Shown here: piece after piece, positions 1,084-57,567 of the stretch | How the letters are laid out: each line of letters starts with the position of its first letter | Numbering within the stretch: the stretch's first letter is position 1 | NCBI GenBank assembly: GCA_020428815.1 | Contig: JAGQMC010000042.1 | Span: forward strand, 1 to 57,858 | Source: Candidatus Kaiserbacteria bacterium | Lineage (GTDB): Bacteria > Patescibacteriota > Minisyncoccia > Phycocordibacterales > UBA918 | Direction: 5' to 3' | Length of the DNA: 57,858 bases | The notes under the pieces: model-generated | Told to the model about the DNA's origin: nothing | The model's input: the letters and a program-made list of their open reading frames with translations, nothing else | Database searches by the model: none | Position numbers and translations under genes: made by a program

Positions 1084-1123
1084 TTTTAATTACTTTTGTA
1101 CGAAATACTGTTATTACTTGTTT

Positions 1124-1230
1124 CAAAAATAGATACAGAGCGAGGAAGCTGAGAGAAATTTTTTGAGCCGTACTTAGTGGTACGGTGAAGAAAATTTCTT
1201 GAAAGATGACGACGCTATGTGCTATTTTTG
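1124..1230. repeat. 107-nt imperfect long hairpin (three helical segments)
   Basis: CAAAAATAG (1124-1132) pairs with CTATTTTTG (1222-1230). Internal AGAAATTTT pairs with AAAATTTCT. Apical CCGTAC-TTAGTG-GTACGG. Located between htpX and the MazG-like gene. Confidence 0.5.
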
Positions 1231-1239
1231 GAATAAGTG

Positions 1240-3698: not shown

Positions 3699-3726
3699 TT
3701 GACAAAGTATTTTAATTATGTATAAT
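3699..3726 (+). promoter_or_regulatory. consensus sigma70-type promoter (TTGACA-16 nt-TATAAT)
   Basis: TTGACA at 3699-3704 and TATAAT at 3721-3726, with a 16-nt spacer. Predicted TSS near 3733. Confidence 0.7.
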
Positions 3727-3732
3727 ACCAGC

Positions 3733-3994
3733 ATTCAACTTGGAGCCGAAAGAGGCAATACCACTCACCTGGTTGAATATCAGTGCTACATGGAATGCGG
3801 ACCCCATGATGACGCCCGCGTACACTGGTTAGGGGGTCCAGCTTGCTGGAGCGCCAAGGTTCCCCTGTGGTCTAGGGAGGCATGCGATGCGAGGCCAAAA
3901 AGACAAGAGTGGAAGGGGTGGCTTAGGAGCCACGTGGAGTTGCAGGATGTAACCCACAATCCCCGGCCTCATGTGTGCACGCATGGGGTTTTTT
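3733..3994 (+). ncRNA. unclassified GC-rich structured RNA; candidate riboswitch leader or stand-alone ncRNA
   Basis: 39/60 G+C in 3831-3890 versus 16/60 in 3661-3720. Helices: 3733-3739/3772-3778, 3779-3785/3823-3829, 3789-3793/3804-3808, 3831-3836/3861-3866, 3837-3841/3846-3850 (CUUG loop), 3918-3923/3928-3933 (UAGG loop). Bounded by a promoter and an intrinsic terminator. Confidence 0.6.
3967..3994 (+). terminator. intrinsic terminator closing the structured RNA
   Basis: 9-bp stem 3967-3975/3980-3988 (including 2 G-U pairs) with a TGCA loop, immediately followed by TTTTTT (3989-3994). Confidence 0.8.
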
Positions 3995-4070
3995 CTTTAT
4001 TGACTAATCAGACTCAAAATACTAGTCTGTTTCCGGACCATTTGAACCTTTAAAGCAAGGAGAAAATAAA

Positions 4071-5097: not shown

Positions 5098-5172
5098 AAT
5101 TTTTCTCCGTTCAGGACTATGTTTTTATTACTACTTATTCAAGTAAATATTACAGTAGAGCTCTGGGAAAGC

Positions 5173-5224
5173 AAAAGGCCGGCGCAAAGCGCCGGCCTTT
5201 TGTCCCGAGGTCCATCCTCGGGAC
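5173..5224 (-). terminator. tandem GC hairpins terminating groEL
   Basis: GTCCCGAGG(5202-5210)/CCTCGGGAC(5216-5224), then GGCCGGCGC(5177-5185)/GCGCCGGCC(5189-5197). The second hairpin is flanked by A4/T4 runs. Confidence 0.8.
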
Positions 5225-5255
5225 AAAATTAAGTTTCTTCGATTTTTTGAGCTTT

Positions 5256-7955: not shown

Positions 7956-8053
7956 TGTCAGTACATTATTTATACGGTGCAAATCCTTTCGGGATTTGCG
8001 CCTTTTTCCTTTAAAGTTTTATGGTTTGCTTACAGTCTTACAGTTAAGTGCCA

Positions 8054-8156
8054 CAAGCAGGGTCTGAGCAATTTGAAAGACCTCACGAAGCTCGTCATCT
8101 GGACGAGCGAGCGGAGAACTTGATTTATGTCTTTCAAATTACTCAGACCCTGCTTG
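8054..8156. repeat. 103-nt long hairpin: 28-bp inverted repeat (1 mismatch) enclosing a 7-bp apical hairpin
   Basis: 8054-8081 CAAGCAGGGTCTGAGCAATTTGAAAGAC pairs with 8129-8156 GTCTTTCAAATTACTCAGACCCTGCTTG. Inner hairpin GCTCGTC(8090-8096)/GACGAGC(8102-8108). Confidence 0.6.
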
Positions 8157-8190: not shown

Positions 8191-8430
8191 ATGAATATTA
8201 TCGAAGCAGTGCAACCAGCACTACCTTACATCCAGATAATTCTCTCCATTCTGCTCGTTTCAGGCATTTTGTTGCAACAACGTGGCTCGAGTTTGGGAGG
8301 TGCATTTGGAGGCGACAACTTTAGTTCAGCTTTTCACAAGCGACGTGGTTCGGAGCTTTTCCTATTCAAATTTTCAGTAATTGTGGCAATTTTGTTTGTT
8401 TTCTCAACTTTTCTTAACATACTTGTTTAA
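8191..8430 (+). CDS. secG: preprotein translocase subunit SecG
   Basis: 79 aa, two TM helices, with the Gly-rich loop LLQQRGSSLGGAFGG typical of SecG. Confidence 0.85.
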   Translation: MNIIEAVQPALPYIQIILSILLVSGILLQQRGSSLGGAFGGDNFSSAFHKRRGSELFLFKFSVIVAILFVFSTFLNILV

Positions 8431-37761: not shown

Positions 37762-37940
37762 TATTTTTTCCAATCTTTAATTACCAACTCTTTACCCCGA
37801 AGTTCAATCGTTACCTTTTGCCCACGTTGCCATCTTAGTTTACGAATCAACTCAATCGGCAGTGTCATAGCCACACTCCGACCACTACCTGACTTTGATA
37901 ATTTGCGAGTAAACCTATCTTCTAATTTATTTCTTGCCAT
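37761..37940 (-). CDS. AbrB/MazE/SpoVT-type DNA-binding protein (antitoxin-like), 59 aa
   Basis: SVAMTLPIELIRKLRWQRGQKVTIELRGKELVIKD matches the swapped-hairpin AbrB pattern. Start trimmed to MARNK, because the track ORF extension runs through the upstream palindrome. Confidence 0.65.
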   Translation of the reverse strand: MARNKLEDRFTRKLSKSGSGRSVAMTLPIELIRKLRWQRGQKVTIELRGKELVIKDWKK

Positions 37941-37956
37941 ATCTAGTAGCATACCA

Positions 37957-38002
37957 TTGCGCAGAGCTTGCTCCGAGCATGCGCAGAGCAAGCTCTGCGC
38001 AA
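37957..38002. promoter_or_regulatory. perfect 16-bp inverted repeat (TTGCGCAGAGCTTGCT / AGCAAGCTCTGCGCAA), 14-nt spacer; candidate operator
   Basis: Arms at 37957-37972 and 37987-38002. GC-rich in an AT-rich divergent intergenic region, 17 nt upstream of the AbrB-like start. Confidence 0.65.
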
Positions 38003-38069
38003 ACCCACACTCCTGATGATAGATTGGGGTATGCTATAGTAAATTTCATAAAATAAATACGAACCATCT

Positions 38070-44649: not shown

Positions 44650-44704
44650 GACGGTTTCTCCTTACGGTTTTCGTCATTCGCTAGCGGGCTCCCAAAATCT
44701 TAGG

Positions 44705-44756
44705 TTTACCATAGCTTAAAATCAACAAACTTTTACTGACTTGAAGCTATGGTAAA
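44705..44756. promoter_or_regulatory. perfect 13-bp inverted repeat (TTTACCATAGCTT / AAGCTATGGTAAA), 26-nt spacer, in the leader of the high-GC gene
   Basis: Arms at 44705-44717 and 44744-44756, downstream of the predicted promoter. Confidence 0.55.
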
Positions 44757-44776
44757 TATGAAAAGAACTTATATAC

Positions 44777-44805
44777 ATAATAACACGATTTAAGTTAAAA
44801 GTCAA
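44777..44805 (-). promoter_or_regulatory. candidate promoter (TTGACT-17 nt-TATTAT) for the high-GC gene
   Basis: On the minus strand, -35 lies at 44800-44805 and -10 at 44777-44782. Confidence 0.5.
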
Positions 44806-44846
44806 TGCTAGCTGTTTGGGGCCACGTTAGAACTTTTTTGATAATA

Positions 44847-44886
44847 TAAAAAGTCTCGTTGCTAAGACTTCTCCCAGCAACGAGAC
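44847..44886 (-). terminator. intrinsic terminator after the small membrane protein gene
   Basis: GTCTCGTTGCT(44853-44863)/AGCAACGAGAC(44876-44886). On the minus strand it is followed by TTTTT. Confidence 0.85.
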
Positions 44887-44890
44887 GTGA

Positions 44891-45721: not shown

Positions 45722-46033
45722 GAAAAGAGTATATCAAAGTTCTAAAGTCCGCTGGAATGTATGCCCGACAGATATGCGAAGCATGCAGCTTCAGTACAAG
45801 TTGTCGATATTTTTACTCCTTTCAATCGCAAAATACCTGACAAACCCTCTGAAACAATCTACCATATGTTTCAGCCCCAGTTTTTGGTGCTAGGTAAAAC
45901 AGCCTGGGTGAGGAGTGACTAAATGTCACTTTGCAAGACCTTTTGAGAAATTTTGAGTTTATGAGAAATTTCCAAAAGATGTACAGATTCTGTAAGAAGA
46001 CTGTTTTACGGACGTCTTGTTTTGTGTTCAAAG

Positions 46034-46104
46034 CTGCCAGACTAGGATTCGAACCTAGGTGACGAGTGCCAGAAACTCGCATCCTACCACTAGATGATCT
46101 GGCA
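46034..46104 (-). tRNA. tRNA-Gln (anticodon CUG)
   Basis: Acceptor TGCCAGA/TCTGGCA (U1-A72), D stem ATCT/GGAT, anticodon stem CGAGT/ACTCG with loop TTCTGGC, T arm CTAGG-TTCGAAT-CCTAG, discriminator G. Confidence 0.92.
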
Positions 46105-46221
46105 GCTTTGAAAGCAAAACGCTTATCCACTAGACGTGTCCGGCAAGGTAATCGGTGCGATTGCGCTAGCTTTCGCACCAGTCGCACTATACTGCCAGAA
46201 TCTATGAAAGATTCAAGTGAG

Positions 46222-46842
46222 TTAATTCTGTAAATTAACAGACCAAGCACACTGACCTGAGTTAGTTTCTGGATTATAAGTCACTGCTTTTATTTGTGTA
46301 TTTGGCATAGTTAATAAATTGAAGAAAGTCTTTGTAGCTTGAAATACATTCAACTTCTTTGTCTGACACATGTGTGCTACGAAAAAATTAATAAAGACTG
46401 AATGTGACACGATAACTAATTTAGCATCGGGCGGTAAGCTGGCCACTTTTTCTTTTACTATCTCAATTCTTTTAAGTAAGTCTGCGTAAGACTCACCATC
46501 AGTAGACTCTTTGCCCTCTCTTCCGAGAAACCATTTAAAATAAAAAATAAATGAGCCGATACTAAAGTGATAATTCCCATACAATTTGTCTGGTCGTTTG
46601 AGCTCGTTTAAGTAAGAAAATGTATCAGGCACTAAGTCACACTCCTTCCCAATTACTTTAGCGGTATCTAGTGCTCGTACCAGAGAACTGGTCATTAGAT
46701 GAGTTGGTTTTAAAGCCTTAATCAGCAAAGCGGCCTTTCGCACTTCCTCTTCTCCTTTAAAGGTCAGTGGGCTATGTTCAGCTTGGTGACGCCGAGCAAC
46801 ATTACCATTCGTTTCGCCGTGTCTAATAAAGTAAATTTCCAT
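46222..46842 (-). CDS. histidine phosphatase (phosphoglycerate mutase-like) family protein
   Basis: N-terminal IRHGETNGN catalytic motif. 206 aa. Confidence 0.8.
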   Translation of the reverse strand: MEIYFIRHGETNGNVARRHQAEHSPLTFKGEEEVRKAALLIKALKPTHLMTSSLVRALDTAKVIGKECDLVPDTFSYLNELKRPDKLYGNYHFSIGSFIFYFKWFLGREGKESTDGESYADLLKRIEIVKEKVASLPPDAKLVIVSHSVFINFFVAHMCQTKKLNVFQATKTFFNLLTMPNTQIKAVTYNPETNSGQCAWSVNLQN

Positions 46843-50517: not shown

Positions 50518-50595
50518 TGTCGTGGCATTGTACCGAGGGCAGCACTAATTGCAAGTCGCACTTGTGTCTTTGTTCTTATAATTTAGGGGAAGGAA

Positions 50596-50787
50596 ATGCA
50601 AAAAAATATTCATAGCTACACCGGACACCTCATAAACCTACTGGTTATTTCTGGTTTGGTATTTTTTGCACTTGGCCTAGTTGGCACTATCTGCAAAATA
50701 AACTGTGATTTTGCTCTACCGGCCACCTTACTTGGTTTTGTGGTGTTGGTTATTGGAGCAAGCTTGGCACCACTAAACCAAGTATAA
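50596..50787 (+). CDS. small 2-TM membrane protein
   Basis: 63 aa. GGGGAAGGAA lies directly upstream of the ATG. Confidence 0.5.
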   Translation: MQKNIHSYTGHLINLLVISGLVFFALGLVGTICKINCDFALPATLLGFVVLVIGASLAPLNQV

Positions 50788-50803
50788 ATATAAACATCTG
50801 GCT

Positions 50804-51646
50804 TTAGCCTAAAGTACTACTCGCTGTTTCAATTTCTGGAACAGCGGGTTCTTCATTTATATAAACCTTGCTACCAAATCTCAAATCAATGTATTGGAAA
50901 TTACCTGGGGCTAAGTGAGAAAATTCGGGTGAAGCTAAGATAGCTCGAAGATTATCAACAATTTCCTCTGGTGGATTTGCAATTGTCACCTTTAATTCAC
51001 CACCGCCAACTATTGTTAAAAAAGCGTCTCCCACGTTATCTAATTCTACGCGCGAGACGTACCAATCGTTAGCAGCTAGTAATTCCACCAATTCATTTAC
51101 CATTGAAAATATATCAAATGGTAAGACTAACTTACCGACTTCCATTTGCTCTCCTGAAGTCACGAATCTTAAGTATGTACCACCTGACAAAACTGGCGCC
51201 TTTGAGAAAGCCAGCCCTGTCTCATCAAGAAATAAACATTTTTCTGAGGATAAATCCCCGTCACACCACAGAGCATATGGCACATATTCATCAAAACTTA
51301 CAGATAAAGCGCGTTTTGTTTGAGACACTTCAACACTATGTACTCGATCAATCGCACTAACCGAATCAATAATCCTCGACTCTGGATACGTCCAAGTGAA
51401 ACGCTTGGGTATCAACCCAAGATAATCACCACTAAGCTCAGCTGCTACGATTTCTTCAATTACTCTATGCTTAATAGTTTCGCCTCCATAAACATTAATT
51501 TCATCGATGGTAACTGCCGGTAATCTTGTACCGTGCCAAACACCAGTTATAAATAATGCCAATAAACCAAAAACCAAAGCACCGATTCCTATTTGTTTTA
51601 ACAAGACTTTAGTTTCTGGTCTGATTTTTTGTCGACGACTACTCAT
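50804..51646 (-). CDS. ftsQ: cell division protein FtsQ/DivIB-like (POTRA)
   Basis: 280 aa with a basic N-terminus, a single TM helix, a POTRA-like region (I.V.G......I) and a beta-rich ectodomain. Confidence 0.6.
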   Translation of the reverse strand: MSSRRQKIRPETKVLLKQIGIGALVFGLLALFITGVWHGTRLPAVTIDEINVYGGETIKHRVIEEIVAAELSGDYLGLIPKRFTWTYPESRIIDSVSAIDRVHSVEVSQTKRALSVSFDEYVPYALWCDGDLSSEKCLFLDETGLAFSKAPVLSGGTYLRFVTSGEQMEVGKLVLPFDIFSMVNELVELLAANDWYVSRVELDNVGDAFLTIVGGGELKVTIANPPEEIVDNLRAILASPEFSHLAPGNFQYIDLRFGSKVYINEEPAVPEIETASSTLG

Positions 51647-51709: not shown

Positions 51710-52975
51710 TTATTTTTCAATTTTATCCTTTCCAAAGTATGACCGAAGTGGCTCAGGGATAACAATACTTTCATCCGCTTGTTGAAAATTCTCCATCAAT
51801 GACACCAGAATGCGCGGAGTCGGAATGGCAGTACAGTTTAGTGAGTGGGCATAACGAATCTTTCCATCTTCGTCACGATAGCGAATGTTAAATCGTCTAG
51901 TCTGGAAGTCATGGAAGTATGAAGCAGAACTAATCTCTCGATATTTTTGTTCTCCGGGCACCCATAGCTCAATATCATACTTTTTAACCTGACCTTGTCC
52001 CAAGTCACCTCCACAGTTCACCACTGTCCGGTAAGGAATACCTAGTGATTCAATAAATTCCTCAGTGTTACGGTTTAGCCATTCGTGCCACTTAACACTC
52101 TCTTCATGTGACGCTTCGCAAAGCATCACTTGTTCGAGCTTGTAGAATTCATGTACTCGAATCAAACCCCGAGTGTCTTTACCGTGGCTACCAGCCTCCC
52201 GTCGATAACAAGGAGAAAAACCTAGATACTTTATCGGAAACTCACTCTTATCTAAAATCTCATCACTACGATAACCCATTACTGACACTTCACTGGTACC
52301 AATCAAATAATCTTCATCTTGGGTACGATATACATCATCAGCTTCATTAGGCAAATGGCCCGTACCATACAAATTAGCCTTGCGTACAATTGAAGGTGGT
52401 AGTACCGGAGTAAAACCTTTTTGTTGAAAGAAGTCATTAGCATAGTTCCAAATTGCCCATGACAATCGTGCTCCATCACCGATCAAGTAATAACCACGAA
52501 AACCATGCACTTTTGATCCACGCTCAAAGTCCACCATTTGATGATCTTGCATCAAATCAACGTGATCTTTAGCTGTAAAAGAGAATTTTGTCTGATCTCC
52601 CCAAATCTTAAACTCTTCGTTATCTTCATCAGAGTCTCCGTCTGGAACTGACATATCTGGGACATTTGGAACCTGTAACATTAAAGACTGCCATTCTTCC
52701 ATCACTGGCTTTAACTTATCTTCATCCTGCTGAATTGCCGCCTTCACTATCTGCATTTCCCCAATTAATCGCTGTTTTTCTACAGGATCAGTGGTAATGG
52801 GAATTTGTTCCGAGACTTTGTTTTGTTTAGCTCGCTCTTCCTCGATTTGACTCACTAGTGATCGGCGAGAATCATCTACTACTATCAGTCTATCCAAATC
52901 AATACTCGACTTTTTCTTAGTCGCCGCCATTTTTACCACGTCTAAATTTTCCCTAATGAATTTAATATCAAGCAT
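51710..52975 (-). CDS. serS: serine--tRNA ligase
   Basis: 421 aa. N-terminal coiled-coil arm and class II motifs (FRGYYL, CYRREAGS, TAIPTPRIL). Confidence 0.95.
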   Translation of the reverse strand: MLDIKFIRENLDVVKMAATKKKSSIDLDRLIVVDDSRRSLVSQIEEERAKQNKVSEQIPITTDPVEKQRLIGEMQIVKAAIQQDEDKLKPVMEEWQSLMLQVPNVPDMSVPDGDSDEDNEEFKIWGDQTKFSFTAKDHVDLMQDHQMVDFERGSKVHGFRGYYLIGDGARLSWAIWNYANDFFQQKGFTPVLPPSIVRKANLYGTGHLPNEADDVYRTQDEDYLIGTSEVSVMGYRSDEILDKSEFPIKYLGFSPCYRREAGSHGKDTRGLIRVHEFYKLEQVMLCEASHEESVKWHEWLNRNTEEFIESLGIPYRTVVNCGGDLGQGQVKKYDIELWVPGEQKYREISSASYFHDFQTRRFNIRYRDEDGKIRYAHSLNCTAIPTPRILVSLMENFQQADESIVIPEPLRSYFGKDKIEK

Positions 52976-53081: not shown

Positions 53082-53381
53082 TTAGCCCAGCACCTTTTCC
53101 ACTTCGTCTTGCAAAGCTTTTGTTTCTTCTTTAATAATATCTTCAAAGTTTGGATATTTCTCAGCCAGAGCAACAAGGATGTTTTCGGTCTCGGGTAATG
53201 ACTCCATATAATCTTGCAGTTCTCCCACCTGAGCATCGTCTAGCTTAATTAGTAGCCGGTTTAGTGATGAGTCTAGTATCAAACTCCCAAAGCGAGCCAG
53301 TAGAGCTTCTTGTTGCTCTGGCGTCATTTTTTCTAGCCCTAGTAGTTCTGCTATTTTGTTGGTTTGATTTTCTTCAGACAT
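53082..53381 (-). CDS. small acidic helical protein, unknown function
   Basis: 99 aa. 3-nt gap after the 961-aa gene. Confidence 0.65.
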   Translation of the reverse strand: MSEENQTNKIAELLGLEKMTPEQQEALLARFGSLILDSSLNRLLIKLDDAQVGELQDYMESLPETENILVALAEKYPNFEDIIKEETKALQDEVEKVLG

Positions 53382-53384
53382 AAA

Positions 53385-56270
53385 CTATACATTACTAAAC
53401 AAGACTTCCTTGTTTCCGGTAAAAATAAATTCTACTAATTTTCCAAGTGGTAAGGTGTCATTAACTGACAAAATTCTCGGGTCGCCACTCGCAATACCAA
53501 GTCGTTGCCACTCATCACTAGTTAAAGCGTCGGTATGACCAATCATTACCCCTTCACCCAAATCAGGTAACCGTTCAGCTATATAACCTTCTAGATTGTC
53601 GTTATAATCCCTAAAACCAATCGACATATCATCAGGCAGAGACATCTTACCCTCCTCAACTCCACGATTGATGAAGTTTATTATGTGATCATATACTTTG
53701 ACTGGCTCTCCTTGCTCGTTAACCAATCTTAAAAATTCATACGACTGGTCTTGATACTGCTCACTCATTTGATAACCAGCTAAGTTATACTCCGATGCAA
53801 CACCTTCTGTTTGAGCCCCTGCAACCGAAGCTTCTCCAGTACCACTCCAAACTGCCCCCGCTTCGCGAGCAGCTTCAAACTCTTCTGGAGAATTTACAAT
53901 TTGTTCAGACCCGTCTGGCATGATTACTCCTCTTGGATAACCCTCGGTGACAACCTCCCCTTCAACCCCAGCAGCTGTCACTGGTGTATTACTGTTTGCT
54001 TCAGCCCCCTCAAAACCAGTCGCTTCTACAACTCCAGTAGTATCTACAGCAGTAGAAGCGTCAGGTGATACACCGTCAAGCTGCGTACCTTCCATTAGTT
54101 CGACCAGACTTTGCATATCAATGGTTTCTCCTGGGTAAATAAGATTTGGATCACCACTACCCACTCCTAGTTGGACCCATTGTTCTGGGGTTAATCGAGG
54201 TGCTACATCCTGAGCACTAGTGAACTCAGGGAAGGTTTGATACATCTTGGCTGCCAAGCCGTTACGATCAACTCCTTCTGGTAACTTTAGTTCACCAGCG
54301 TCTAGTCTTTCTCTTAAGTTATTCAGAAGTGTCTCCGATAAAGTATCTCCTCTTTGCACCTCATGAGTTGTCTCGATGTTAGCCAGTGATTCCGCGGAGA
54401 CAGCTGTTTGTGCACTTGGAGTAGACTCTACTGCCCCAATCTCGTCTGGACCCTGACTTAAATCCCAACCCTCAGTACTGGTATCAAACACCTTAGGTGC
54501 TTCACTCATTTCTTTGATGTTATCGGCGGTGAATGTTGGAGCGTCAGGGTCAAGATTGTAAACTGTCTTGTCGTTATTCAAATCAAGATTAGACTGTGAC
54601 CACCTATCATCACCAATGACTTGCGTATTGGACTGAGATGAGACTGGATCACCAGTTTCTACAGGTCCATCTGACGGTAAATCTACCCCATCCATAGGCA
54701 CATTGTCCGGTGGCGCCCAAGCTCCACCATCGGGCGAGACAGCTTCTGGGATTGGGCTGGGGCTTAAATCAACCTCAACCGAACCTAGGTTTAAGGAATC
54801 AATATATTCTGAAGCTGATTCAACGATTTGTGGACCAGCCATGGTCAACACGGCCGTTAGTGTAGCTAACCTCTTAGCACTTTCTGCGCTCTTTATATTA
54901 GAGGCACTTTCTAAGTATAGTTCTTCTAATTCTTCAAAAGCGGCTACATTAGCTTTGATTTGTTTAGCAATATCTATTTTTTGTTCCTGATGTTCACTCT
55001 CGACCCTTTTTACCATTTTCCCACCAAGCCAATTTACTCCCATCACAACACCAGCCCCTAGAGGATTCATTAACTTTGCACCAACACTAACTCCCAAGGC
55101 AAAAATACCCACCCCTTTGACCACATTAGGATGCTCTCTCAACTTCTCTACCAACCGTCTCTTCAACTTTTGAGCTGATTCTGGCAACTGACTCGACTGA
55201 ATTTCAATCCTCTTCTGCACAACATCCCACACATACCGGTCACCAATCGCAAGCTCCATTGCCCCTTCACCAATTTTTGCTTCTATCTGTTGGTAAGCGC
55301 CACTATTAAGTTGAGCTTCTCGTAGTTGTCCAAAAGCCTCTTTATACTTATCACGAGCTAATATTGAAGCTTGAGACAGAGCTTCTTCAGCTTCTCTATC
55401 TCGACGAAAACCGAACATTTTCTTCGTTCCTTTACTTTCTTTGGTTATAGCTTCTAAGTACTCACGCTTAGCTTGCTTAAAGTCGGATTTAGCGGCTATG
55501 TACTCACGGTTGCGTACCCCCTCAACCGTTTCAGTAGCCTGTTCAACCGTGGCTACACGATGACCTTTTGGTATTGTGTCAGCAGTTTCCACCTCAGATT
55601 CACCCTCTACTGATTCCGCTGTTTCTTCTTGGTCGCCCACCTCCCCACCTTCGGTCGACACAGAATCACCTCCAATCTCTCTTTCTAGGCGACGAATCTC
55701 AGACTCCTTATCTAATACTAGATTTTCATTTTCATCATGATGGATAGTGAAGTTTCTTTCTTTGTCATTAATGTGGTCTACCTCTTGTTTGAGAGCATTG
55801 ATTTTTTCTTTCTTTAGTTTATTCAACTTTTCTGTCTCTCTTTTAATTTCCGCATCTCTTTGCTCTCGTTCATATTCATAAATCTGTCCTTCCAGCGTTA
55901 ACACTTTGGCATCAGCCTCGGTGGTATCCATCTTACCTTCACGCACCAAAGTATTGATCTCATCTATCTTACTCTTCCGCTCTAAAATCTCTTGACTGTA
56001 TTCAGTGTCATTTTCTTCAATCTCGTTGTCATTATTTTTCTCTTGGTTAGATTGTGTGGGAAATTTCTCTGACATATCTTGATTATTAATTTTCAATTCT
56101 TCCTTTTCACTATTCGACTTGTCTTTTTTATTCCTTTCTAACTGCCGTTTTCTTTCTTTCACTATTTTTGCATAACCTCTCTGTAAACCGTCAACAACAT
56201 CTGGCTGCAACATAGTTTCTTTTCCCTCTTCACCTTCCTGCCGCTCAAGTGCAGACTCTCTTTGCATCAT
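53385..56270 (-). CDS. large coiled-coil / TM / repeat-bearing surface protein (961 aa)
   Basis: E/K-rich coiled-coil N-terminal third, hydrophobic segment VKGVGIFALGVSVGAKLMNPLGAGVVMGVNWLGG, and an acidic C-terminal half. The C-terminal half has two copies of a module ending in W..LG..SGDP (about residues 712-742 and 909-941). Confidence 0.75.
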   Translation of the reverse strand: MMQRESALERQEGEEGKETMLQPDVVDGLQRGYAKIVKERKRQLERNKKDKSNSEKEELKINNQDMSEKFPTQSNQEKNNDNEIEENDTEYSQEILERKSKIDEINTLVREGKMDTTEADAKVLTLEGQIYEYEREQRDAEIKRETEKLNKLKKEKINALKQEVDHINDKERNFTIHHDENENLVLDKESEIRRLEREIGGDSVSTEGGEVGDQEETAESVEGESEVETADTIPKGHRVATVEQATETVEGVRNREYIAAKSDFKQAKREYLEAITKESKGTKKMFGFRRDREAEEALSQASILARDKYKEAFGQLREAQLNSGAYQQIEAKIGEGAMELAIGDRYVWDVVQKRIEIQSSQLPESAQKLKRRLVEKLREHPNVVKGVGIFALGVSVGAKLMNPLGAGVVMGVNWLGGKMVKRVESEHQEQKIDIAKQIKANVAAFEELEELYLESASNIKSAESAKRLATLTAVLTMAGPQIVESASEYIDSLNLGSVEVDLSPSPIPEAVSPDGGAWAPPDNVPMDGVDLPSDGPVETGDPVSSQSNTQVIGDDRWSQSNLDLNNDKTVYNLDPDAPTFTADNIKEMSEAPKVFDTSTEGWDLSQGPDEIGAVESTPSAQTAVSAESLANIETTHEVQRGDTLSETLLNNLRERLDAGELKLPEGVDRNGLAAKMYQTFPEFTSAQDVAPRLTPEQWVQLGVGSGDPNLIYPGETIDMQSLVELMEGTQLDGVSPDASTAVDTTGVVEATGFEGAEANSNTPVTAAGVEGEVVTEGYPRGVIMPDGSEQIVNSPEEFEAAREAGAVWSGTGEASVAGAQTEGVASEYNLAGYQMSEQYQDQSYEFLRLVNEQGEPVKVYDHIINFINRGVEEGKMSLPDDMSIGFRDYNDNLEGYIAERLPDLGEGVMIGHTDALTSDEWQRLGIASGDPRILSVNDTLPLGKLVEFIFTGNKEVLFSNV

Positions 56271-56387
56271 ATTTTCTATTTATTACTTCAGTCTATACAG
56301 GAGCATCGTCCTTGGTAAAAGTCTCATTTTTTCCCATAAAAAAATTCTATCACAGGTTTAGTTGCCTACGCTAGGTTTTATACAAAT

Positions 56388-56632
56388 AAAAAGACCTGAT
56401 GGCTCTGCGATGAAATGCAGTAGCCACCAGGCCAGCGTGTCGAATCACAATCTGATGTAGAGCCAAGCGATATTTCAAAAGCGCTCGACTGAGGTCTTGC
56501 TCGTCACGTGGACCTTCAGATTTGTGTGACTGGGGTCATGAACCTCACTCAGACACGCACCTGCCGTCATTGGGTACGACAGGGTGGTAGGAGCGGCGTG
56601 CTCCCTACTCAGCGCTAGCAATTACGCAGAGT
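56388..56632 (-). ncRNA. unclassified GC-rich structured RNA / 5' leader of the 961-aa protein gene
   Basis: 37/60 G+C in 56541-56600. Helices: 56587-56594/56600-56608, 56560-56567/56576-56583, 56489-56496/56510-56519, 56401-56408/56417-56425, and long-range 56445-56451/56552-56558. A promoter lies directly upstream on the minus strand. Confidence 0.5.
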
Positions 56633-56638
56633 TTCAAC

Positions 56639-56666
56639 ATAATACATGAAATTTAGATATTGTCAA
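56639..56666 (-). promoter_or_regulatory. candidate promoter (TTGACA-16 nt-TATTAT) for the structured RNA / giant-protein operon
   Basis: On the minus strand, -35 lies at 56661-56666 and -10 at 56639-56644. Predicted TSS near 56632. Confidence 0.55.
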
Positions 56667-56700
56667 TCTCTAACGAGCCCATGATAAAATATTAATAATT

Positions 56701-57567
56701 ATGGACTTTCCTATTCACAGGCTAGCGGCAGCGGGATTTCCGACAGGCTTGCAGGAAATCCCGCAACCACCAGCCGCCTTATATTACCGCGGCCAACTAC
56801 CAACCGCTGATCTAACTCTCCTATCTGTCGTTGGACCGCGCAAATACTCTCTCTACGGTAAGCAAGTCGTGGAGGAATTAGTCAGTGGTTTGAGAGATTA
56901 TCCTTTAGGCATAGTGTCAGGTTTAGCTTTAGGGATGGACTCTCTGGCTCACGAAGTAGCATTGCGTAACCATATCTATACATTAGCGATTCCTGGGGGC
57001 GGGATAAATGACGAAGTCATTTATCCCGCCCGCCATAAATCTTTAGCTCGTCGTATTTTAGAGTCGGGAGGTGGTTTACTATCTGAATTTGAACCAGACT
57101 TTAGGGCGACCAAATGGTCATTCCCGCAACGAAATAGATTAGTAGCTGGCATCAGTCAGGCCACTCTATTGGTTGAAGCTGCTGAAAAATCTGGCACTTT
57201 AATTACTGCCCGTATGACTGTCGACTACAATCGAGACCTGATGGTTGTCCCGGGTAATATTTTTCACAACACTAGTCGTGGTGTACATCAATTCTTAAAA
57301 CTAGGAGCCACTCCAGTAACTTGTAGCGAGGACATCCTTGAAGTATTAAAGATTAAACAACAATCACCTCTTCCGGTCACACCAATAGTTAGCTTATCCC
57401 CAGCCGAACAACAAGTGATAAAACACTTATCCGAACCGACTCACCGTGACGAACTAATCAGAAGATTAGACTTACCTACCAACGAAGCAGCTCAATTATT
57501 GATGATGATGGAACTGGCCGGTCAGATTAAAAGTGAACAAAATATTTATCGCCATACTCTAACTTAA
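56701..57567 (+). CDS. dprA: DNA processing protein DprA (Smf)
   Basis: 288 aa. VVGPRKYS.YG, IVSGLALGMDS.AH and SGTLITA motifs of the DprA Rossmann domain, plus a C-terminal winged-helix-like tail. Confidence 0.9.
   Translation: MDFPIHRLAAAGFPTGLQEIPQPPAALYYRGQLPTADLTLLSVVGPRKYSLYGKQVVEELVSGLRDYPLGIVSGLALGMDSLAHEVALRNHIYTLAIPGGGINDEVIYPARHKSLARRILESGGGLLSEFEPDFRATKWSFPQRNRLVAGISQATLLVEAAEKSGTLITARMTVDYNRDLMVVPGNIFHNTSRGVHQFLKLGATPVTCSEDILEVLKIKQQSPLPVTPIVSLSPAEQQVIKHLSEPTHRDELIRRLDLPTNEAAQLLMMMELAGQIKSEQNIYRHTLT

Follow-up and report, generated by a model that had tools for sequence, protein, structure and literature searches.

Trans-acting small RNAs (sRNAs) are known to be encoded in bacteria by genes with their own promoter and a Rho-independent terminator, examples being the competence-linked csRNAs of Streptococcus and RocR of Legionella. 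The RNA described here, encoded on the minus strand at 56388–56632 of the window, i.e., of the whole stretch of 57,858 nucleotides that was analysed, resembles such genes in its intergenic location, in its strong promoter and in a terminator hairpin that forms the 3' end, and it is likewise predicted to be an independent unit. As in generic sRNA genes, its sequence turns over fast and a short segment alone is conserved, and it adjoins a competence gene, dprA. It does, however, exceed most base-pairing sRNAs in size and, by far, in its degree of structure, and shows no homology to them, and it differs from the csRNAs and RocR in that its link to competence is one of position only, with neither an identified target nor a known chaperone.

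Two other kinds of described RNAs invite comparison. Like the 6S and CsrB-type RNAs, the window RNA, as a candidate for a structured RNA that stands alone, has a primary sequence that is poorly conserved, but it gives no match to the 6S model (RF00013), both its minimum-free-energy (MFE) fold and its centroid are multi-branched, where 6S RNA has a rod opened by a central bubble, and, unlike CsrB-type RNAs, it contains no statistically solid repeated loop motif. As in T-box leaders (RF00230), it is located upstream of a serS-containing operon, ends in a terminator hairpin and has a GGUGG-containing segment; it differs from them in lacking a model match at E ≤ 10 and a stable antiterminator, in having a promoter motif after its terminator, and in being missing from relatives with the same operon. 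It is a well-bounded candidate RNA gene that is absent from databases, and of an ordinary kind, that of bacterial sRNAs equipped with both a promoter and a terminator. The explanation that we favour, with moderate confidence, is that of a stand-alone, lineage-specific sRNA gene, independently transcribed and acting in trans, and not of a leader; at present the RNA can be considered one orphan sRNA candidate.

The source organism is an uncultivated bacterium of the Paceibacteria (Patescibacteria/CPR). DNA identical to that of the window has been recovered by several studies in metagenomes of activated sludge and wastewater, and the genomes nearest to it carry the label Candidatus Nomurabacteria or Paceibacteria. 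In the public DNA runs the organism reaches a depth of only ~3–6x. The 430-nt space that houses the RNA separates dprA, on the plus strand, from the divergent gene of a 961-aa protein on the minus strand. The features of the region are as follows.

56701–57567, plus strand: dprA, outside the RNA (Pfam DNA_processg_A, E = 4e-62)
56682–56690, plus strand: extended -10 sequence motif of dprA, TGATAAAAT
56639–56666, minus strand: sigma-70-type promoter of the RNA (-35 TTGACA at 56666–56661, 16-nt spacer, -10 TATTAT at 56644–56639)
56607–56632, minus strand: 5' hairpin P1 (ACUC.GCGU / GCGC.GAGU) of the MFE fold, outer pair probability 0.89
56589–56605, minus strand: hairpin P2 (GGGAGC-ACGCC-GCUCCU) of the MFE fold, previously given as 56587–56594/56600–56608, pair probability 0.90
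56567–56585, minus strand: 19-nt island ACCCUGUCGUACCCAAUGA, with the version ACCCUGUCGUAUCCUAUGA in the related locus L014, overlapping the 5' arm and loop of P3
56560–56583, minus strand: hairpin P3 (CCUGUCGU-ACCCAAUG-ACGGCAGG) of the MFE fold, pair probability 0.87
56435–56558, minus strand: multi-branched central domain of the MFE fold, 124 nt, with three inner hairpins
56388–56433, minus strand: intrinsic terminator, made up of a singly bulged 16-bp stem, an 8-nt loop and U5 (56392–56388), followed by AUUU
56344–56352, minus strand: extended -10 element TGATAGAAT (TGnTAnnnT motif), the putative promoter for the operon downstream, 82 nt upstream of the start codon (ATG) of the 961-aa protein
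53385–56270, minus strand: gene of the 961-aa protein, downstream neighbour, outside the RNA
53082–53381, minus strand: gene of a 99-aa protein, the L014 counterpart of which has a weak DUF5663 match
51710–52975, minus strand: serS, the third gene downstream of the RNA, after the 99-aa gene

The ATG at 56270 and the 961-aa open reading frame that an earlier note on this DNA had assigned to the downstream gene were both borne out by an ORF check. The protein has no Pfam match; its N-terminal half is a Glu/Lys-rich coiled coil, a single hydrophobic stretch probably spans the membrane, and a C-terminal domain of ~90 aa is present twice (..EQWVQLGVGSGDPNLIYPGETI.. and ..DEWQRLGIASGDPRILSVNDTL..). 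Its identity to the large proteins encoded at the same position in relatives is 24–44%, against 70–75% for DprA; by this comparison it is their homologue, evolving much faster than the proteins of the neighbouring genes. On the other side of the RNA, the extended -10 motif of dprA lies just 16 nt past the -35 element of the RNA promoter, which leaves the two divergent promoters in a tight back-to-back arrangement. The -35 element, TTGACAA, is nearly palindromic, the dprA strand reading TTGTCAA in the 56661–56690 region, and the predicted leader of the dprA mRNA comprises only a few nucleotides. Motifs of the type TGnTAnnWT are 2.6-fold denser in the intergenic than in the coding DNA of the window and often stand 15–20 nt ahead of start codons, that of dprA included, as well as, for example, those of the genes ending at 51646, 48553, 24543, and 21474. 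This distribution suggests that many mRNAs of the source organism may be leaderless or nearly so.

The promoter of the RNA, TTGACA-16-TATTAT, had been recognised on the minus strand in the earlier note; it matches the consensus at 11 of 12 positions, is the best promoter-like site within 56000–57000, and places the predicted transcription start at ~56632. The GC content of the RNA (56388–56632) is 53.5% compared with 41.1% for the window, and the count of 37 G or C among the 60 positions 56541–56600 reported before is exact. The minus strand folds with an MFE of -104 kcal/mol (z -5.5), which none of 200 dinucleotide shuffles equalled, while the plus strand gives z -1.8, so that the structure is strand-specific. 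The body of the RNA without the terminator still folds with z -3.5, again with none of 200 shuffles as good. In its fold z, GC content and promoter, the segment agrees with what had been proposed, an RNA that is GC-rich, structured in a strand-specific manner and served by a promoter of its own.

Most of the pairings suggested previously are compatible with this fold. The four local helices are complementary and all belong to the MFE fold, the last of them (56401–56408/56417–56425) being just the top of the 16-bp terminator stem. The long-range helix GCGUGUC/GACACGC closes the central domain (56558–56552 with 56441–56435, closing-pair probability 0.88); its pairing stands, but its 3' strand had been placed at 56445–56451, where the sequence is AUUGUGA. 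The helix CTCTGCG/CGCAGAG, thought to close the RNA in competition with the 3'-terminal hairpin, is complementary as well, but it is an alternative outside the MFE fold, and it costs +15.7 kcal/mol to force. Since covariation is absent, the fold rests on single-sequence thermodynamics. Neither direct or tandem repeats inside the RNA nor copies of it elsewhere in the window were found, and a repeat or guide array was rejected on these grounds.

The stem of the terminator, GGCCUGGUGGCU.CUGC / GCAG.AGCCAUCAGGUC at 56433–56393, has a free energy of -28.7 kcal/mol and pair probabilities of 0.97–1.0. The gap of 8 nt between hairpin and T-run on which the idea of read-through had been based is absent; the 16-bp stem directly abuts U5, and the terminator is therefore a canonical intrinsic one. 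A simple terminator scan missed it, and it was identified from the fold and the pair probabilities.

Comparison with known RNA families was based on Rfam 15, with 4227 models including those of RNase P, tmRNA, SRP, 6S, T-box, riboswitches, ribozymes, OLE, GOLLD, HEARO, ROOL, and raiA. At the gathering score only two tRNAs were matched in the whole window, and at E ≤ 10 the 561 nt of 56200–56760 gave two chance-level matches, both outside the RNA, and none within it. The earlier observation that signatures of RNase P, tmRNA, SRP, and 6S are missing thus holds even at this permissive threshold, and ARAGORN found no tmRNA in the window. The positional counterparts in 27 related loci were likewise unmatched at the gathering score, and the search of the L018 counterpart at E ≤ 10 revealed no family, with terminator-like noise at most. 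RNase P was considered for the ~400-nt counterparts, L018 having AAGAAAGUC and CAAAUAGGG, and was rejected, as the model match is absent. The T-box model RF00230 matched neither the RNA at E ≤ 10 nor the counterparts at the gathering score, and the RNA has no antiterminator/terminator pair of comparable stability, the forced CCACC/GGUGG antiterminator costing +17.9 kcal/mol and the forced CUCUGCG/CGCAGAG helix the amount given above; in the thermodynamic model no plausible terminator/antiterminator switch exists in this RNA. No translated similarity to 100 related loci was detected in any of the six frames, and a pseudogene was rejected for this reason. With its own promoter, its own intrinsic terminator and no conserved reading frame, the RNA has the sequence features expected of a stand-alone sRNA gene.

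A similar organization recurs at the dprA locus in other Paceibacteria. Counting the window and 17 related loci, 18 sources have a TTGACA-16/17-TAnnnT promoter at a distance of 16–37 nt from the start of dprA; in L020 and L091 this distance is ~90–95 nt. The promoter is followed, in 14 or more related loci, by a non-coding, GC-enriched segment of 120–460 nt and then by a terminator; this count comes from reading the sequences, and an automated scan confirmed both ends in only part of them. All ten counterparts tested fold beyond their shuffles (z -3.3 to -8.6). Of 15 RNAs, 9 (2.5 expected) contain the pentamer UUCGG, a sequence able to give a C(UUCG)G tetraloop; no other motif is common to the 15, and the counterparts are otherwise unrelated to each other in sequence. 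Fast-evolving structured RNA genes seem to have a hot spot here, in the slot that adjoins dprA towards serS.

Among the counterparts, three RNAs of ~400 nt on the minus strand (L014, 6852–7250; L017, 4540–4935; L018, 4525–4935) have in common a CCRCCG-hairpin-CGAAG-hairpin module with compensatory changes in the stems, and a search with the CCRCCG...CGAAG pattern matched L014/15/16, L017, and L018 only, at that locus. L017 and L018 also share CAUAAAU..GCGCGAU. A model built from L017 (R2) found L014 as its best non-self match, with 13.1 bits and in a syntenic position, and nothing in the window RNA. Because Rfam matches none of them, the three RNAs may form an undescribed family. The window RNA agrees with them in position, strand, and the layout of promoter and terminator; it shares the 19-nt island with L014 and CGACACGCU..GGCUACUG with L017. 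It differs from them in being ~150 nt shorter and devoid of the module, and its predicted fold (model R1) does not align to them. It is also worth mentioning that in L037, at ~635–975 on the minus strand upstream of dprA, two sRNA-like units of ~125–140 nt each are arranged in tandem, that each unit has a separate TTGACA promoter and a terminator, that their 5' hairpins are similar (GGUAUCAAxC..GUUUGAUACC), and that they carry the C-rich single-stranded stretches CACCCUCUCU and CACCCUCAUCCACC. They look like a recent duplication of an sRNA gene.

The sequence of the RNA itself could be followed over a very short and a very long distance. In eight metagenomes (five studies, 2016–2025) the region 55700–57300 was retrieved with zero nucleotide differences in the RNA, and the only divergent piece was one contig within dprA, derived from a different dprA; the population appears remarkably clonal across these metagenomes, and, with zero SNPs in the RNA, they provide no covariation. 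The closest DprA among 5.8 billion proteins is 75% identical, which, together with the identity of the metagenome copies, means that close or intermediate relatives are missing. An exact 38-nt pattern from the RNA had no match in species-representative genomes, nhmmer and blastn searches of 96–100 related loci (767 kb) detected no homologue of the RNA beyond the 19-nt island, and a covariance model of the whole predicted fold (R1), run over ~700 kb of related loci both with and without filters, gave no match except to itself. MAFFT and RNAalifold gave no consensus structure for the counterparts, which are few and highly divergent.

The 19-nt island is identical to L014 at 17 of 19 positions, with a local-alignment z of 5.2 that none of 200 shuffles reached, on the same strand of the same locus; it is unique within the window and within the related loci. 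The rest of the RNA is unalignable to L014, the closest relative, and DprA is only 75% identical. A second island of 23–25 nt, CGACACGCU..GGUGGCUACUG (56442–56418, reaching into the terminator), resembles L017 with z 2.8; apart from this weaker match, the 19-nt island stands alone as a clearly conserved part of the RNA. A pattern scan of IMG/VR returned 0 matches for the 19-nt island and 54 for the second motif, about the chance level by a rough estimate of the collection size.

The relation of the RNA to the operon downstream is the point on which the explanations diverge most. In the earlier note the RNA was said to lead into the 961-aa operon with plausible read-through, and it could accordingly be a riboswitch- or T-box-like leader or attenuator acting in cis on the 961-aa/99-aa/serS operon through regulated read-through. 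The RNA is indeed upstream of, and co-oriented with, an operon ending in serS, many counterparts stand directly before serS, and the terminator 5' arm contains GGUGGCUAC, which we take to resemble loosely the T-box core, with a CCACC upstream that could pair with GGUGG. Against this reading stand the missing T-box and riboswitch matches, the 16–18 kcal/mol that the alternative pairings cost while the terminator has a probability of ~1, and the lack of sequence conservation in the RNA bodies. Moreover, the terminator is followed by the putative extended -10 promoter of the operon, and equivalent TGCTAnnnT elements come after the RNA terminator in L014 (TGCTATTCT), L017 (TGCTACTAT), and L018 (TGCTAAAAT); most counterparts have a conserved TGTATAAT between the terminator and serS. 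The operon of large protein, DUF5663 protein and serS also occurs without the RNA, with intergenic distances of 53–96 nt, in L011, L002, L097, and L099, as well as in L098, where the upstream gene is cut by the contig end; in L100, which has the small protein and serS but not the large-protein gene, the RNA is absent too (69 nt). Conversely, promoter, structured RNA and terminator are found directly before serS, without a large gene, in L020, L005, L040, L062, L066, L087, L089, and L091, and in all of these the serS promoter stands between the terminator and serS. Judging from gene order in these relatives, each occurs without the other, and the RNA is uncoupled from the downstream gene. A leader is thus unlikely, and of the two options that the earlier note had considered, the independent sRNA is favoured.

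An independent RNA need not act by base pairing. One that binds or sequesters proteins, as a 6S- or CsrB-like sponge or scaffold, would be consistent with the length of 245 nt (400–460 nt in L014, L017, L018, and L020) and the dense structure, both above those typical of base-pairing sRNAs, and with motifs recurring in five of the RNAs (AUGAC 9 times vs. 2.4 expected, CCACC 7 times vs. 1.8), as expected if protein-binding motifs alone are kept while the rest drifts. We nevertheless find it rather unlikely: this enrichment is marginal once the number of pentamers tested, 1024, is taken into account, no motif other than UUCGG is shared when all 15 RNAs are considered, the 6S match is absent and the fold branched, and no partner protein is evident at the locus. 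That the patchy presence in relatives and the near absence of sequence conservation betray a non-functional relic, i.e., a decayed insertion or gene fragment behind a divergent promoter whose terminator was retained as an insulator, is quite improbable, even though the divergent promoter at the same position drives protein-coding genes in L058, L083, L090, and L097. A strand-specific fold well beyond shuffles, elevated GC, the significant structure of all counterparts tested, the UUCGG enrichment of the wider set and the conserved 19-nt island all argue against it, and neither a protein-coding remnant nor a repeat or mobile-element signature is present. Finally, the list of open reading frames includes a TTG-initiated frame of 48 codons (56621–56475), and 31 codons can be read from the AUG of the island, so that the RNA could be the mRNA of a small protein, possibly with a dual function. 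Both differences between the islands of the window and L014 fall at third codon positions and are synonymous (Y, P), and in both the frame continues from the island AUG; however, the differences are 3 nt apart, and such a pattern is estimated to arise by chance in about one case in four. Neither start is preceded by a Shine-Dalgarno sequence, L014 has a stop immediately upstream and does not preserve the 48-codon frame, the downstream peptides (31 aa, and 20 aa in L014) are unrelated, no locus shows translated similarity, and the start region is buried in P3. Translation of the RNA is therefore regarded as very improbable.

If the RNA is a stand-alone sRNA gene, RNA polymerase with the housekeeping sigma factor would start at ~56632, from the promoter placed back to back with that of dprA, and the transcript of ~241–245 nt would stop at the 16-bp hairpin and U5. 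It is predicted to fold into two 5' hairpins, a third hairpin, the multi-branched domain of 124 nt, and the terminator hairpin at its 3' end. The downstream operon of the 961-aa gene, the 99-aa gene and serS would be transcribed separately, from the putative extended -10 promoter. We infer that the RNA regulates in trans, with the 19-nt island (56585–56567) as the likeliest functional site, acting through base pairing or protein binding. A target search in which windowed duplexes were predicted for the window's 54 start regions yielded no candidate that stood out, and none at dprA or the operon; seed matching that tolerated G-U pairs, applied to the window and to L014, brought up no convincing target either. 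The RNA would then be one of many fast-evolving, lineage-specific structured RNAs beside dprA, on the serS side, in Paceibacteria.

It is possible, though doubtful, that the window RNA belongs, in a shortened form, to a very fast-evolving and as yet undescribed class of large structured RNAs (120–460 nt) of the divergent dprA/serS intergenic region in Paceibacteria. In such a class only short functional islands and the promoter-terminator frame would be conserved, and its members could be CPR-specific riboregulators or components of a ribonucleoprotein, possibly tied to DNA uptake or to the hypervariable surface protein. A literature search found no description of non-coding RNAs from the Candidate Phyla Radiation. 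Organisms of this group have tiny genomes, an epibiotic lifestyle and a reliance on DNA uptake and surface proteins, and an RNA between dprA and the operon of a hypervariable surface protein is a concrete candidate for a regulator. Were this so, CPR genomes, reduced as they are, would continue to spend resources on lineage-specific RNAs with a rapid turnover, and the dprA locus would offer a defined place to study how such RNAs originate and are replaced.

Several further features of the window were noted. A second GC-rich RNA candidate is located at 3733–3994 on the plus strand, with a TTGACA/TATAAT promoter at ~3700–3728 and a terminator at ~3965–3996; Rfam gives no match to it at E ≤ 10, it resembles none of the dprA-locus RNAs, and its dissimilarity to the window RNA, noticed previously, is reflected in a local-alignment z of -1.6. 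The 111-aa open reading frame that overlaps it (3718–4053) is probably spurious. A 142-aa open reading frame at 45822–46250 is likewise unlikely to be a gene; it is read from the minus strand, as is the tRNA-Gln (46033–46104) with which it overlaps. The 540 nt listed as intergenic at 7956–8495 fold with z -6.5 on both strands; they contain a long inverted repeat (~8055–8155) and, at ~8191–8430, an unlisted small open reading frame that by eye looks like a SecG-type membrane protein. The region does not represent a relative of the dprA-locus RNA. Other intergenic segments fold far beyond shuffles at 1084–1239 (plus strand, z -9.7), 5098–5255 (minus strand, z -7.0), 37774–38069 (z ~-4), 44650–44890 (plus strand, z -5.8), and 50549–50803 (plus strand, z -3.8), and the genome may contain several further structured RNAs or long terminators.
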